DNA from: a virus
Lineage: Duplodnaviria > Heunggongvirae > Uroviricota > Caudoviricetes
Direction: 5' to 3' (one strand)
IMG/VR virus record: IMGVR_UViG_2703718822_000010
Length of the DNA stretch: 64,000 nucleotides
Part shown: positions 48,538 through 59,655 of the stretch, piece by piece
Layout: each line of letters begins with the position of its first letter
How positions within the stretch are numbered: position 1 is the first letter of the stretch
Program-made: the position numbers and the translations under genes
Notes under the pieces: model-generated
The model's database searches: none
What the model was told of the DNA's origin: nothing
The model's input: the letters and a program-made list of their open reading frames with translations, nothing else

Positions 48538-49194
48538 ATGGGTGGAAGTAAAGGTGGTGGTGATACCAAAGTAAAACCAACAGCAGCGCAAATAGCACAG
48601 GAAGAAGTGGCCTGGAAAGGGTGGCAGGATTACAAAAATATCCTCCGCCCGGCTGAAGATAACTTCATGGAAAAGGTCGATGACCTGAACAGTGAGCAGC
48701 AGTACGACAATATTGCTGGCACCACAAATCTGGGGTATCAAAAACAGTTTGGCGAAGCGCGGAAGGAGCTGGCAAGTAATCTCACTCGGTCCGGTGTTGA
48801 CCCGTCCAGTGGTCGCTTTAACGCGGTAATGAATGCGAACCAGAGTGATCAGGTAACCGGGCAGATTGACACAACCACACGGGGGCAGGTATCGCAGGCA
48901 GATAAGTATGTTGCCGGGCTACAGGATGTTGCTGCTCTCGGTTCTGGTCAGAAGGCGGATGCGTTACAGAGTTTTAACTCTCTGGCAGACAGCAGTCTGG
49001 CAAAAGCTAAATCGGATGCACAGGCGGCGTTTACGAAACAGCAGGGGCGAGCCTCTCTTGTTGGCGCTGGTCTGGGTGCGGCAGGTGCATATGCGATGCA
49101 TAAGGCTGGCGGTAGCGGAGGAAGTGGCGGTGCTAAAACACCTGGCACTGGCGCTAATGCCATTCAGCATCAGGCTCAGAACTGGAGACTGTGA
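48538..49194 (+). CDS. Gly/Ala-rich hypothetical protein, first gene of the giant-ORF block
   Basis: 218 aa beginning MGGSKGGG, ending with GGSGGSGG tract. Confidence 0.45.
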   Translation: MGGSKGGGDTKVKPTAAQIAQEEVAWKGWQDYKNILRPAEDNFMEKVDDLNSEQQYDNIAGTTNLGYQKQFGEARKELASNLTRSGVDPSSGRFNAVMNANQSDQVTGQIDTTTRGQVSQADKYVAGLQDVAALGSGQKADALQSFNSLADSSLAKAKSDAQAAFTKQQGRASLVGAGLGAAGAYAMHKAGGSGGSGGAKTPGTGANAIQHQAQNWRL

Positions 49195-57200: not shown

Positions 57201-59655
57201 GCCGGAACGTAACGCGCATATCGCGAAAATCAACCCGAAAATGCCGGACGGCGGTTCGGGGATGACCAACGCGGAAGCGGCGGAAATCATGCAGCGTGTA
57301 CGTAACAGCGGCAAACAGGCACAGTATGACCGTCTGGCAGGGATTGTTGACGATATGCTGGCCCGTCGCCGTGAGCTTATCCGTGAGGCCGGACTGGAAG
57401 AGAGCGGTGTGGTGGATGCCTGGCAGAACGCCTACCGTTACTACGTTCCCTTGAAAGGGCAGGATGTTGACGGTGTGGTGTCACTGCCCCGTACAGGTAA
57501 GGGCTTCACCATCGGTGGGCGTGAAAGTAAGCAGGCCATGGGGCGTGCATCCCGCGCACAGTCTCCGTCCACTCAGGCGATACAGGACTTGAGCGAATCG
57601 CTGATCCGCAGTCGCAAAAATGAAGTGGGTAACGCCTTCCTGAAGCTGGTGCAGGATAATCCCGATAAGGATTACTGGCAGGTATTCACTGATGACAGAC
57701 CGGATACCATGCGTGTGATTGCAGAGCGCAAGGACCAGGAAACTGGTGAAACCATTCGCGAAGTTGTCGAGCGTCCGGTGGCGATGGCAATGATGGCAGA
57801 CCGGTACTTCACCACCAAAAAGAACGGCAAAACGTACTACATCAAACTCCATGATCCGCGCCTGATGCGTGCGATGAAGAATATGGGACCGGAAACCAGT
57901 AACGCAGTAATCCGTACGCTGGGGAAAGTTAACCGCTTCCTGGCAACGGTGAACACGTCGTATAACCCGGAATTCCTGGTCAGTAACTTCATCCGTGATG
58001 TGCAGACAGCGGTGATGAATCTGAAGGCGGAGCAGGGAAGGAGCGACGGCAAACTGAAAGGGCTGGATAACTTATCCGCACTGGCTGTGGTGAAAGACAG
58101 CCGTTCTGCTATGTCAGCCGTATACGCCAGTCTGCGTGGCAAAAACCTCACGGGCAAAGGTGCGCAGTGGCAGAAGGTGTGGAAAGAGTTTGTTGAGGAC
58201 GGAGGTAAAACCGGCTGGTTTAACATGGGTGACCTTGAAGGCCAGCAGAAGGAAATGGATCGCCTTGTATCGCTGGCGAAGGGAGGATGGAAAGGCCAGA
58301 GTATCGGTGCATGGAATTCGTTCCTTAACCTTGTCGAGGATGCCAACGGGGCGGTTGAAAATGCTCTGCGTCTTTCTGCCTATAAACACGCCCGTGATGC
58401 CGGTTTGTCACGCCAGCAGGCGGCGTCTCTTGCCAAAAACATGACGGTGAACTTTAATCGTCGTGGTGAGCAGGGAGCGCTGATGAACTCGCTGTATATG
58501 TTTGCCAACGCCAGCATTCAGGGGACGGCAAACCTGGTGAGAACGCTCGGACATCTTAATGGCGACGGGCCGTTACTGGAGCGCCTTCGCTGGAAGAATC
58601 TCAATGTACCGCAGAAAATCGCGCTTGCAGCTGTGGGAGCGGGTTATCTGCTTGGCTCGCTTAACCGCAGTGTTGCGGGGGAGGATGATGACGGGGTTAA
58701 CTGGTATGACAAAGTGCCGTCTCATGTGAAAGAGCGTAACCTCGTCATTATGAAATCGGTGTTCGGGGGCAAGGCCGGAGAGTACTGGAGTATTCCTCTG
58801 CCTTACGGGTACAACGTTTTCTTCCTGCTCGGGCATACCGCTGAAGGTGTGGCGGCGGGTGACCTGACGGCATCCCGTGCTGCCGGTAATGTTGTCGGTG
58901 GTATCCTGGGGGCATTCAGCCCGATCGGCAGTGAGACGTCGGAAACACTGTCCGGGGCATTGCTGAAAAATGCAGCGCCGACCATTCTGCGTCCGTTTGC
59001 GAACCTTGCCATGAATGAAAACTTCATGGGGGCGCAGATTTACCAGGAGAACATACCGTTTGGTACACCAAAACCTGACAGCCAGCTGGGAATACGTTCA
59101 ACGCCAGAAGCGTACAAGGCGTTTGCATCTTGGCTGAATGCGTTCTCTGGTGGCAGTCAGTACCGTCCCGGCGCGGTGGATATCACACCGGAATCGCTGA
59201 TATTCTGGATTGACTATATCTCCGGAGGGACAGGGCGCTTCATTTCCAAAACCACGGATGCGGCGGTGAAATCGCTGAATGGTATTGATATACCGGAACA
59301 GCAGGTGCCCTTCCTGGGGAAAATTTCGGGTGAGGTGATGCCGTATGCAGACCAGCAGAAGATGTACGACCGGATGACAGAGGTTGCGCAGTATCACGCA
59401 GAGCTGAAGAGTCTGACCGGTGCAGAAAGAACGGCGTTCATTGACGAGAACAACGGAAAATTGTCGATGAACGGGCTTATGCAGGATACCCGGAAGAGAC
59501 TGAAGGATTTGCGCAAACAGCGCGATGCCATTTATGCCGACAGTTCTCTCAGTCTGGCGCAGCAGGCGGCGATGGTGAAATCGGTAGAGCGGGATATGAA
59601 GGTTGCCGTGGATCGCTTTAACCGCGAGTACAACAAAAAAGTGGGAGTGGAGTAA
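51271..59655 (+). CDS. Giant multidomain protein (about 2,794 aa) with two HExxH motifs
   Basis: Uninterrupted 8.4-kb ORF; likely start ATG 51271 with GGAG upstream (track start 51232 overlaps the terminator); AHEWFH near 55120 and HEIIH near 55925; no Walker A seen by eye. Confidence 0.7.
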   Translation: MAYSEEQRPEAQLGNQNRNSLNIQQPGETDSYEAFFSDPNRWKDNSTSFSLGDVLPTMGKGFAQSVRGTGEMARGLGDAMIQSPVKTGARILNEFSRMGLPGVTTVQDIFAGGSRGADEVIDTLPDGKNAVTDTVGKGLKATGKAVSDGAEATDEWLTGKMSPGAVRALNTPMTEGYDDSAVWVAKGVNLIGALVPDMVAGGVAKKVGDVTLRKMLTAGLEKKYIAAGMQPERATALAAEAVDKKMPDLFQAGLITHSTASAQGQSAMAAADAVLNADYSELAQSPKFQQTFLSIDADPQHAQLTDRQKMDLAKERVADEVRAQLATDPELLAVNAMAAKLGDAQLFNLVTRGTAKTVKSGIVRNATEQGAINAAQGGYSRYQENTALRETAGMDVSPWEGVADATIEGAAFGAAMGAPSGAVAGYRGRRQAAEETAMRDAETVQQDDAAPQPESVDPVAQQRESMQGMNREQLLEQYADADMATEGDASAAHRREAASQLLNELDEQAKRQAVMNELKAKPRSELLEEYRRLSQKEGRTETEEQQFQAIREVIRPQQEVTPEAQSQPENAEDGNGSIYPTVRFRDPNEVRIEINGNGASRPAERIEKVRPDNRYFTDEKSAMGSDVFRNAAATGLKPSVVKKGENQYAVEMDNPAFSEDVATETINTLADGERIADADPMEQPAFMRDPRFRGFTGDDTEVQARLARGNVPTAEELVRSQMAEGDAGPTAQELTERPRLPAPGDIHPGQGYPLPGEVARTPDENQAGRGGRFTTTGEVKGQSFQKGQAPAPENAAGRQGETLEGEMVRRGLPSPDAQNATAPVREGLPAPDIARNVRMPQPESLPRTVRDSLPELAQQAEVRRQAGGNRDIPQPETIAPESETTVSTDREATVRGGEVRGKKIEDFGEEIKGAAKHRYAQLAETLGKTLEDRDYATQPLSKLFPKPDYAKLANEGADADTLAMIALYRSDIPAKTKHNTAGWGESIKKVRHSVSEMLNGTVSAKRLAEWMEGRMPSRYADTWQLLRTLPPSQMDRASAYRVVSGVYQAAGGKRYDPPQKLYSLRNKDNKGSNLFFSESRDELLAKAKVWFAEQEEKSQAKGDEKTAPSPDDKIRFDVYRNTRSGDIFIAYGKNKMRVRGGFKSASDARKYIDSHRDELVRHVKEMREISREEQRNATNRDRTGPERRKGNVSPEQFSDAFGFRGVQFGNYVEGPRRQADLNRAYDSLHDLAEVLNVPTKALSLNGRLGLAFGARGKGKAAAHYEPGEAAINLTKGNGPGALAHEWFHSLDNYFGRYDVSTDGKITSGGDFMTEAQRARRVFKDGRYVDAEYPVRQEVYDAFKGVIQAIKNSDMPRRSALLDEVRSKPYWSTDVEMAARAFERYVQDKARMAGVENDYLVNIRKAPEHNTDNTYAYPTNAELDGGIREAFDHLFRTLKTRETDKGVAFYSRKGVTRTPEGNLISDVNRSAEAKGSPVPQVEAVARGVMSGIKDSDLKVRVVKSQKEAEALAGESFDGYGRVHAFYRPDKREIVLVADNIPDGRTVREKLRHEIIHHAMEHVVTPAEYQTIIKTVLKTRDSDNATIREAWRKVDASYGKESPEVQAGEFLAHMAEKQPNKFVAAWERVVALVKGVLRRTGLLKPTELNDIRLVRETIRTLGQRVREGYTPREDGADASSQYSRSGKPDPFKVPEGEGERYRDDLARMMKSLRSGAMTANIGRTPPVLRHLGAPDLPLVISRDTVRKATNGVKHVVPMDVIERLPELMHDPDAIYRSATERNAVVMLLDAVDKNGDPVVSAVHMKATDKRIEINKVASVYGTKGGMNKANSLDKAGLTLYRKEKLSRDNPQYSGLQLPKEERSYRGSVDKILYPEDIRKGPYYSRTSSLTPEETIASRFVRQMQDKFQVLKAVQENIRKTGGKIDDSNNAYMAEELFHGKAENDLNVMKERYVQPLAKLLADYKIAQADLDEYLYARHAPERNAHIAKINPKMPDGGSGMTNAEAAEIMQRVRNSGKQAQYDRLAGIVDDMLARRRELIREAGLEESGVVDAWQNAYRYYVPLKGQDVDGVVSLPRTGKGFTIGGRESKQAMGRASRAQSPSTQAIQDLSESLIRSRKNEVGNAFLKLVQDNPDKDYWQVFTDDRPDTMRVIAERKDQETGETIREVVERPVAMAMMADRYFTTKKNGKTYYIKLHDPRLMRAMKNMGPETSNAVIRTLGKVNRFLATVNTSYNPEFLVSNFIRDVQTAVMNLKAEQGRSDGKLKGLDNLSALAVVKDSRSAMSAVYASLRGKNLTGKGAQWQKVWKEFVEDGGKTGWFNMGDLEGQQKEMDRLVSLAKGGWKGQSIGAWNSFLNLVEDANGAVENALRLSAYKHARDAGLSRQQAASLAKNMTVNFNRRGEQGALMNSLYMFANASIQGTANLVRTLGHLNGDGPLLERLRWKNLNVPQKIALAAVGAGYLLGSLNRSVAGEDDDGVNWYDKVPSHVKERNLVIMKSVFGGKAGEYWSIPLPYGYNVFFLLGHTAEGVAAGDLTASRAAGNVVGGILGAFSPIGSETSETLSGALLKNAAPTILRPFANLAMNENFMGAQIYQENIPFGTPKPDSQLGIRSTPEAYKAFASWLNAFSGGSQYRPGAVDITPESLIFWIDYISGGTGRFISKTTDAAVKSLNGIDIPEQQVPFLGKISGEVMPYADQQKMYDRMTEVAQYHAELKSLTGAERTAFIDENNGKLSMNGLMQDTRKRLKDLRKQRDAIYADSSLSLAQQAAMVKSVERDMKVAVDRFNREYNKKVGVE

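Follow-up and report, generated by a model that had tools for sequence, protein, structure and literature searches.

A block of five co-directional genes, positions 48538-59655 of a 64,000-nucleotide stretch of viral DNA (IMG/VR record IMGVR_UViG_2703718822_000010, Caudoviricetes; the whole stretch is referred to as the window), was characterized by sequence, profile and structure-model searches and by comparison with published work on near-identical homologs. The last gene is an open reading frame (ORF) of 8.4 kb, whose product is referred to as the giant protein. With a probability of about 0.72, the block is an internal-virion (ejection) protein operon of a short-tailed Stx-type phage, the largest member of which delivers swappable enzymes. 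The genes and the hairpins around them are as follows.

48538-49194, plus strand: 218-aa protein (ORF scan)
49197-49643, plus strand: 148-aa protein from ATG 49197, the start annotated in homologs (150 aa from GTG 49191)
49653-49925, plus strand: 90-aa protein (ORF scan)
49936-51201, plus strand: 421-aa protein (ORF scan)
51271-59655, plus strand: giant ORF, 2,794 aa (alternative first ATG at 51232, giving 2,807 aa)
48498-48519, plus strand: terminator-like hairpin 5′ of the block, stem 48498-48511 then T8 (-9.2 kcal/mol, z -3.2)
51234-51260, plus strand: terminator-like hairpin in the gap between the 421-aa and giant genes, stem 51234-51253 then T7 (-15.2 kcal/mol)
59664-59685, plus strand: strong hairpin 3′ of the giant stop codon, lacking a U-tract (-19.6 kcal/mol, z -5.0)

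A preliminary description, made by a model from the letters and an ORF list, had reported five tightly packed genes of 218, 150, 90, 421 and about 2,794 codons, the last open over 8.4 kb, and the ORF scan recovered all five in place. The genes are separated by 2, 9, 10 and 69 nt, and the giant frame contains zero internal stops. ATG 51271 is the likely true start of the giant gene, giving the 2,794-aa product, because the Prokaryotic Genome Annotation Pipeline start lies at the equivalent position in a 99.9% identical genome and because a hairpin occupies 51234-51253. The reported length of the protein varies by record: 2,806 aa for VT2-Sakai in RefSeq, a 2,811-aa ORF frame in the phi24B preprint and 2,807 aa here when counted from the first ATG. 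The hairpin at 51234-51260 falls inside the longer ORF from that first ATG, and it could reduce giant-gene expression on transcripts that are not Q-modified.

The block had also been described as bracketed by intrinsic terminators. This held for the upstream hairpin with its run of eight T residues, but not for the downstream one: the letters following 59664-59685 are TGATTAAG rather than a T-run, and the hairpin is not a canonical intrinsic terminator. A better terminator-like hairpin within the block itself (51234-51253 then T7) had been overlooked. Terminator-like sites were not in excess across the region, 18 being seen and 17.9 expected in shuffled sequence.

The block forms the 3′ end of a late operon belonging to a short-tailed Stx-type prophage (Sepvirinae), an origin that the preliminary description had suggested only tentatively. 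The whole 11.4 kb was found at ≥90% identity in 186 phage records, all of Stx-converting or related short-tailed phages, the closest being phiSTEC1589-Stx1c (99.8% identity), with VT2-Sakai/Sp5 at 96.4% over all 11.4 kb. Of 5,426 complete E. coli genomes, 426 carried the block, the maximum being three copies in a genome. In Stx phages the late structural operon closes with the giant gene, which is where the tail gene cluster ends. Orthologs of the giant protein are Sp5 ORF80 (ECs1242), VT2-Sakai orf71 (NP_050570), 933W L0134 and phi24B gp47, which share 96-98% identity, an identical position and the same four upstream genes; Sp5 ORF76-80 were matched to the five block genes by gene order. Nothing material separates these orthologs from the window copy, which is the allele nearest to phiSTEC1589-Stx1c. 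The gene set is already known, having been described repeatedly in a heavily sequenced phage group. RefSeq names the giant ‘LPD5 (or LPD38) domain-containing protein’, the 90-aa protein is annotated as ‘bacteriocin’, and the others are ‘hypothetical’. In the best-match record (PQ600364.1, 46362-48197) some labels look misassigned, with ‘Portal protein’ on a 117-aa and the 218-aa ORF and the 90-aa ORF called ‘N4-family major capsid protein’, and that annotation was not relied on.

Direct evidence on where these proteins reside comes from phi24B. In a 2026 preprint, gp47 was the second most abundant protein of purified virions by peptide-spectrum match (PSM) count and was absent from the cryo-electron microscopy (cryo-EM) model, and its authors propose that it is an ejection protein. 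All five block products are listed in virions in the preprint's supplement, with 523 PSMs for gp51 (218-aa protein), 1,634 for gp48 (421-aa protein) and only 13 for the 86-aa counterpart of the 90-aa protein. Copies per virion, by an estimate that is rough, are ~19 for gp47, ~30 for gp48, ~36 for gp50 (148-aa protein) and ~22 for gp51. None of gp47, gp48, gp50 or gp51 was placed in the cryo-EM map, in which the tail was solved as portal, two adaptor rings, nozzle, spikes and needle; density in the adaptor lumen was lost upon ejection. Peptides of gp47 were found at residues 36-58, 1293-1313 and 2719-2730, that is at the N-terminus, the first zincin site and the C-terminus. Its PSM maximum (2,188) fell in the top gel slice and the majority in slices above the 79-kDa portal, which suggests that gp47 is carried largely uncleaved in virions; gp48 (~47 kDa) and gp51 likewise migrated at their intact sizes.

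Genetic evidence is available from Sp5, in which Mondal et al. 2016 (PMC5155283) deleted each late gene of unknown function. Deletion of ORF79 (ECs1241, the 421-aa protein) or ORF80 (ECs1242, 2,793 aa) left normal-looking, DNA-filled heads that yielded zero plaques or lysogens, so that both genes are essential, and deletion of ORF76 much reduced infectivity. ORF76 corresponds by position to the 218-aa protein.

The domains of the giant protein were next mapped. Residue numbers refer to the 2,794-aa product.

51751-52569, plus strand: conserved N-terminal region (aa 161-408), kept in the giant of Vibrio phage D56, then a glycine zipper (aa ~393-433) (phrog_37568; weak glycine-zipper Pfam matches; motif scan)
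residues ~440-1040: charged linker, rich in charged residues, Pro and Gln
54421-54870, plus strand (residues 1051-1200): LPD5 (Pfam PF18799, E 6.5e-45)
54814-55581, plus strand (residues 1182-1437): predicted CLCA_X-type zincin with AHEWFHSLD, HExxH at 55120-55134 (NCBIfam NF041907, E 2.3e-44)
55351-55590, plus strand: LPD1, the C-terminal part of the CLCA_X-type zincin (Pfam, E 9e-24)
55687-56262, plus strand (residues ~1473-1664): second, zincin-like domain with HEIIHH at 55921-55938 (alignments; AlphaFold2 model)
56518-56787, plus strand (residues 1750-1839): MuF_C, a PBECR domain predicted to be RNase-like (Pfam PF18819, E 1.2e-17)
56851-59652, plus strand (residues 1861-2794): C-terminal module of 934 aa, mostly helical, holding LPD38
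58699-59316, plus strand: LPD38 (Pfam, E 3e-46)

Two HExxH motifs had been noted near 55120 and 55925, and both were located, AHEWFH beginning at nt 55120 and HEIIH at nt 55921. From the composition of the protein ~0.03 HExxH motifs are expected by chance, and at least two occurred in 0.04% of 5,000 shuffles. Among Pfam, NCBIfam and PHROG matches there was no recognisable lysozyme, transglycosylase, helicase, methylase, polymerase, ATPase or RHS domain and no N4-type virion RNA polymerase core, and there is no GxxxxGK[ST] motif, which bears out the reported lack of helicase, methylase and Walker-A signatures. The whole protein had no match at E ≤1 in a sequence search of the PDB, and a homolog search with its N-terminal 460 aa returned only E. 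coli and Salmonella fragments.

Four earlier or possible identities were set aside. A DarB-like antirestriction protein (P1 DarB) was rejected for want of a methyltransferase or helicase, the PHROG ‘DarB-like’ match covering only residues 2352-2682 of the C-terminal module. The AAA+ ATPase assignment (COG1483) given to Sp5 ORF80 by Mondal et al. 2016 finds neither a GxxxxGK[ST] Walker A motif nor an ATPase family match. The label ‘MuF-C metallopeptidase’ given to gp47 in the phi24B preprint does not fit, as MuF_C belongs to the RNase-like PBECR domains and the peptidase-type motifs are found at other positions. An RHS or tail-fibre structural protein had no support among Pfam, PHROG or PDB matches; homology of the whole protein to a tail or RHS-type structural protein, which the preliminary description had named as grounds for abandoning its view, was seen in none of the Pfam, PDB sequence and fold searches.

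The domain around the first motif is predicted to be a zincin: it has the HExxH, a candidate third ligand and a match to a zincin-family profile. CLCA_X was defined by Lenart et al. 2013 as a family of phage and plasmid zincins, often within very long proteins, and sister to the self-cleaving CLCA peptidase. The match here spans profile positions 3-245 of 250 (243 of the 250 model positions), and its score, 151.8 bits, is below the NCBIfam whole-protein cut-off of 260. A seed member of the family, BPP-1 Bbp10, is also listed as an IVP-D homolog (IVP-D is treated below). The consensus in the paper is HExxHxxxD, whereas the Asp here comes three residues past the HExxH; HEWFHSLD, the local sequence, matches one of the variants of the MPTase zincin described by Iyer, Burroughs, Anand, de Souza and Aravind (Iyer et al. 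2017), which have either an Asp three residues after HExxH or the spacing HExxxH.

D56 and metagenomic homologs as little as 20% identical retain the second domain, and its motif there reads HExxGH (e.g. HEVLGH, HEAVGH); the HEIIHH of the window fits both the HExxH and the HExxxH spacings. The E of the HE pair and a Glu ~56 residues downstream are conserved in at least 90% of homologs that are 20-77% identical, and one distant homolog has QE in place of HE. An AlphaFold2 model of residues 1461-1860 (mean predicted local distance difference test score, pLDDT, 70.7) places the motif on a helix that follows a small sheet, with further helices behind. No significant Pfam match was obtained for the domain (Peptidase_M76, E 0.2), and a Foldseek search of the PDB with the model of this domain and MuF_C gave nothing significant, the nearest being M32 carboxypeptidases (E 0.5-1.4, best 0.48) and RelE/HigB toxins (E 0.8-1.5; TMt 0.46). 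Because of this lack of a significant PDB match the domain is called zincin-like only, its modelled fold being a candidate.

These domains bear on two other explanations of the giant protein. The first would keep it as an ejection protein whose zincins are cell-wall enzymes, cutting peptidoglycan cross-links so that the channel can pass, with no effector role in the cytoplasm. Peptidoglycan digestion is what the authors of the phi24B preprint suggest, large podovirus ejection proteins are often muralytic (T7 gp16; the SLT domain of Bcep22 gp75), and some domain of the Stx giant may have taken on that role, given that it has no recognisable lysozyme or transglycosylase. The preprint, however, puts the peptidase on MuF-C; the zincin-type domains here fall into the CLCA_X and MPTase classes, whose known or proposed roles are self-cleavage or protein targets, and not into the LAS or M23 folds typical of peptidoglycan endopeptidases; and neither LPD5 nor the RNase-like domain has an obvious periplasmic substrate. 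We consider a purely cell-wall role unlikely. In the second explanation the central enzymatic domains are decayed passengers and the protein is a bulky core, or a pressure or spacing filler, of a T=9 head that holds only ~60 kb of DNA. The high estimated copy number would suit a filler, as would the complete difference in cargo between related phages, the D56 homolog without most of the recognisable domains and the QE substitution at motif 2. Decay is hard to reconcile with an intact HExxHxxD in a nearly full-length CLCA_X match, with the conserved acidic pair of the second domain, with domain scores far above the Pfam thresholds and with an 8.4-kb frame that is intact in hundreds of genomes, and this explanation appears very unlikely.

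The C-terminal module is the constant part of the protein. In an alignment of 35 sequences it has 38 invariant columns, many of them polar, and its AlphaFold2 model is mostly helical and of good quality (pLDDT 84.9; predicted template modelling score, pTM, 0.81). Foldseek found nothing comparable in the PDB (best E 0.13, TM-score <0.1), while BFVD gave 67 matches with TM-scores up to 0.87, each of them the end piece of a giant phage protein whose annotation includes LPD, LT_GEWL, RelA/SpoT or methylase domains. On the strength of the model, the module appears to be a conserved fold without a solved representative. Relatives were detected by tblastn in Vibrio phages (41% identity), in Burkholderia Bcep22/DC1 and Ralstonia GP4-like phages (~28%) and in the Bacillus phages Page and Pascal; many metagenomic carriers were also found, each with a different upstream domain (methyltransferases, PF18760, LPD3). 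In the D56 giant LPD38 was the sole Pfam domain found, and LPD5, CLCA_X and MuF_C are missing. A shared C-terminal module combined with differing upstream domains therefore gives an architecture of constant end and swappable cargo.

Described counterparts include Bcep22 gp75 (a 4,602-aa ‘DarB-like antirestriction protein’) and the giants of Ralstonia GP4-like phages. These share a homologous 900-aa LPD38 C-terminus (27-28% identity; hidden Markov model (HMM) E 1e-147), are encoded by the last gene of the structural operon, lack cysteine and are preceded by genes for virion-associated proteins. The cargo of Bcep22 gp75 is different, comprising SLT (residues 74-165), an Eco57I-type methylase, an SNF2 helicase and LPD3, and no homology of the upstream proteins was detectable; with the four small block proteins as tblastn queries, Bcep22 and Gervaise gave no matches. 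In Vibrio phage D56 an order of 201, 117, 77, 467 and 3,066 aa mirrors the 218, 148, 90, 421 and 2,794 aa of the block, with sequence homology in four of the five (218-aa, 90-aa, 421-aa and giant).

Among the upstream proteins, the 218-aa protein has an Ala/Gly-rich C-terminal stretch and matches phrog_611 and phrog_8003 (‘virion structural protein’, E 2e-9), and its D56 homolog stands at the same position (E 7e-15). The 148-aa protein belongs to phrog_596. The 90-aa protein ends in a membrane-type glycine-zipper segment (residues ~50-90; Kyte–Doolittle hydropathy 1.95 at residues 67-85); it has weak, sub-threshold Pfam matches to glycine-zipper and Bacteriocin_IIc families, a D56 homolog at E 2e-4, and, in PHROGs, matches to stretches inside large tail-lysin and tape-measure families of phages. 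The 421-aa protein is a candidate mid-size ejection protein. Its family of 69 representatives, 400-580 aa long, is conserved over the N-terminal ~280 residues, and the D56 467-aa protein matches the family profile at E 2e-85; in a 90%-clustered set, the homologs among the matches listed were near-identical E. coli proteins (≥76% identity). PADLOC returned no match for the giant and three other block proteins. The glycine zipper of the 90-aa protein locally matched LeoB, which was treated as a compositional or motif match.

The preliminary description had also raised co-variation of the block with a capsid type. In tblastn searches with the phi24B major capsid protein and the module, the two went together in Vibrio (104 and 101 records, respectively), Ralstonia (31 and 31) and Burkholderia (10 and 10), and the pattern was broken by Pseudomonas F116-like and by Bacillus phages. 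Bacillus phages have the module, and the capsid-protein matches that were listed did not include them. F116-like phages encode the capsid protein, and their last structural gene specifies an unrelated giant of 3,782 aa (LPD23, LPD3 and methyltransferase; one cysteine), with a 724-aa protein encoded ahead of it (vB_Pae_CF24a). HMMs of the module and of the 421-aa family gave no significant match to the CF24a giant or the 724-aa protein. In F116-like phages the last-gene position is conserved and the protein replaced.

Resemblance to virion-packaged polyvalent proteins, proposed in the preliminary description from gene architecture, is now supported by Pfam matches to LPD5, LPD1, MuF_C and LPD38, by the zincin-type contexts of the HExxH motifs and by the abundance of gp47 in phi24B virions. 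Iyer et al. 2017 defined the LPD domains, identified MuF-C as PBECR (RNase-like) and described the zincin ‘MPTase’ as a hub domain of polyvalent proteins; Stx or 933W is not mentioned in their main text. Such proteins carry several (2-15) distinct effector-type domains and are encoded among virion structural genes. The giant protein has four Pfam domains (E 1e-17 to 3e-46), CLCA_X (E 2e-44) and a second zincin-like domain, and its gene is the last of the late operon in Stx phages and of the structural operon in Bcep22, Gervaise and D56. It shares with the published set a giant polypeptide in a virion module with LPD5, LPD1, MuF_C/PBECR, LPD38 and motifs of both MPTase variant types, and differs in having no ArdC-N, DarB-type helicase/methylase, ART or RNA polymerase cargo.

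All five block proteins lack cysteine: none was found in 3,671 residues (P ~2e-18 at a 1.1% background), whereas there are three in the neighbouring 125-aa ORF and cysteine makes up 0.5-2% of most other late proteins of the window. Zero cysteine is also the rule in Bcep22 gp75, gp74 and gp70, in the giants and upstream proteins of Gervaise and D56, in 44 of 45 members of the 421-aa family, and in N4 gp50, ten N4-like virion RNA polymerase C-termini, T7 gp15 and T7 gp16. Absence of cysteine may be a mark of proteins that thread unfolded through the tail and across an oxidising periplasm.

A class for such proteins exists. In Table 2 of Hardies et al. 2016, VT2-Sakai orf71 (NP_050570) is given as a homolog of IVP-D (T7 gp16) in the F116 structural group; IVP-D proteins host domains destined for the host cytoplasm, e.g. 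the N4 virion RNA polymerase. In organisation the giant conforms to this class, being the product of the largest gene of a co-transcribed internal-virion set, helical in its model, present in the virion and outside the tail and capsid lattice. T7 gp14/15/16 and gp73/72/71 of the N4-like phage DEV form sets of a small, a medium and a giant ejection protein, each set encoded by a single operon, and a conserved C-terminal domain of the giant binds the tunnel protein. The block likewise combines, in one operon, a small membrane-type protein, a mid-size one and a very large one that go unseen in symmetric maps, and its largest protein shares with theirs a conserved terminal domain, enzymes destined for the cytoplasm (predicted here) and the lack of cysteine. 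It differs in having five genes versus three, no RNA polymerase or lytic transglycosylase and a higher estimated copy number, and no sequence, profile or fold similarity to the T7 and DEV operons was found.

Several observations weigh against reading the block as an ejection operon. The module HMM had no significant match to T7 gp14, gp15, gp16 or N4 gp50, hhalign of the module with ten N4-like virion RNA polymerase C-termini gave a probability of 0.5%, and Foldseek found no PDB match for the module in a library expected to hold the solved T7, DEV and P22 ejection proteins; these tests used the C-terminal module and single T7 sequences and are weaker than the joined-HMM approach of Hardies et al. 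IVP-D membership thus rests on Hardies et al. 2016, since homology to T7 gp16 or N4 gp50 was not reproduced here. The 421-aa family profile did not match T7 gp15 and was only marginal to the N-termini of Bcep22 gp74 and Gervaise gp27, and the second zincin-like fold was left without confirmation by the PDB fold search. Deletion of the 90-aa gene in Sp5 is viable (PMC5155283), and its product is barely detectable in phi24B virions. In published work the ejection of the giant protein has never been observed, and ~19 copies of a 305-kDa protein, an estimate that is rough, far exceed the published counts of ~3-4 for T7 gp16 and the N4 virion RNA polymerase. The Sp5 ΔORF79 and ΔORF80 particles, finally, failed to bind tail-fibre antibody, from which the authors infer a defect in tail assembly, not injection (PMC5155283). 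With this ‘tail-less’ phenotype and the high copy estimate, a simple T7 analogy fits only loosely.

The last of these points is the core of another explanation, in which the giant is a tail-assembly or structural component (scaffold, chaperone or energy-using factor) rather than a carrier of ejected effectors, and the HExxH domains act in morphogenesis, e.g. in a maturation cleavage. Mondal et al. class ORF79 and ORF80 as tail-formation genes, with a suggested AAA+ (COG1483) role, and both genes lie at the end of the tail cluster. An energy-using role is difficult to place in a protein with no Walker A and no ATPase domain; the solved phi24B tail is fully explained by other proteins, gp47 being abundant in virions yet not in the model; and ~19 copies in mature particles are unexpected of an assembly factor. 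Loss of an internal protein can also destabilise tails secondarily, and the Sp5 phenotype therefore does not separate tail assembly from ejection. Taken together, we judge a tail-assembly role quite unlikely and retain the ejection operon as the preferred reading.

In an ejection operon the five products would be made late, from a Q-antiterminated transcript reading through the internal hairpin-terminators, and loaded into the T=9 head. Upon release of the tail needle they would be expelled through the tail, ahead of or with the DNA. The glycine-zipper proteins (90 aa and probably 218 aa) and the 421-aa protein would help to form a channel across the outer membrane and periplasm, and the 2,794-aa protein would be the large ejection protein of the T7 gp16/N4 gp50 class. 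Its 934-aa LPD38 module, probably together with the N-terminal glycine-zipper region, would serve packaging, anchoring and translocation, and its middle, with LPD5, two zincin-type peptidase domains and a PBECR RNase-like domain, would be the swappable cargo that enters the cell. The most plausible task of the zincins, once delivered, would be cleavage of the polyprotein or of host targets; that the giant processes itself at that stage may be surmised from its mostly intact state in virions and from the CLCA and MPTase precedents. The peptidase and RNase activities and any anti-defence purpose are predictions from the domains.

A further-reaching version may be put forward tentatively, and we would not favour it over its negation. 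The ~930-residue LPD38 module would be a chassis, widely conserved and still without a solved structure, by which cysteine-free giants are packaged and moved through podovirus tails, with enzymatic cargo swapped onto it; the four upstream proteins (218, 148, 90 and 421 aa) would be a new, non-T7-like set of channel-forming ejection proteins; and the targets of the Stx cargo (LPD5, two zincins and PBECR RNase) would be host defence or host RNA in the cytoplasm.

The surroundings of the block were also examined. Window positions 1-38197 are filled by a Mu-like prophage of at least 38 kb; Stx phage records LC727881 and LC727895 contain a 95% identical element labelled ‘inserted Bacteriophage Mu-like phage’. 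From 39049 on (junction 38198-39049), in the middle of the lateral tail-spike gene, the homology is again of Stx type; the Stx-type prophage therefore appears to be interrupted within its late operon by the Mu-like element, and the head genes lie outside the window. Upstream of the block, cargo-type genes occupy 46743-47954 and 45285-46019. They encode a 403-aa protein, YadA-like in a near-identical genome and with C-terminal adhesin and tail PHROG matches, and an outer-membrane protein of the Lom/Ail family. Hok/Gef toxin genes are found on both sides of the block.

The published view of these genes is unchanged by our results. What they add is a domain map in which both peptidase-type motifs and the RNase-like domain are correctly placed, a correction of the start codon, the split between constant module and cargo, a high-confidence model of the module without a solved relative, the five-gene synteny in Vibrio phages and the cysteine-free mark of the likely ejected set, a signature that is a possible simple predictor of ejected virion proteins. 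The block amounts to ~11 kb of coding sequence, for which the remaining interest is biochemical. Short-tailed Stx phages bring stx to new E. coli lineages, and their infection depends on this block, two genes of which are essential and a third of which strongly affects infectivity. If true, a translocating chassis with cargo acting in the cytoplasm would account for the wide spread of stx by these phages.

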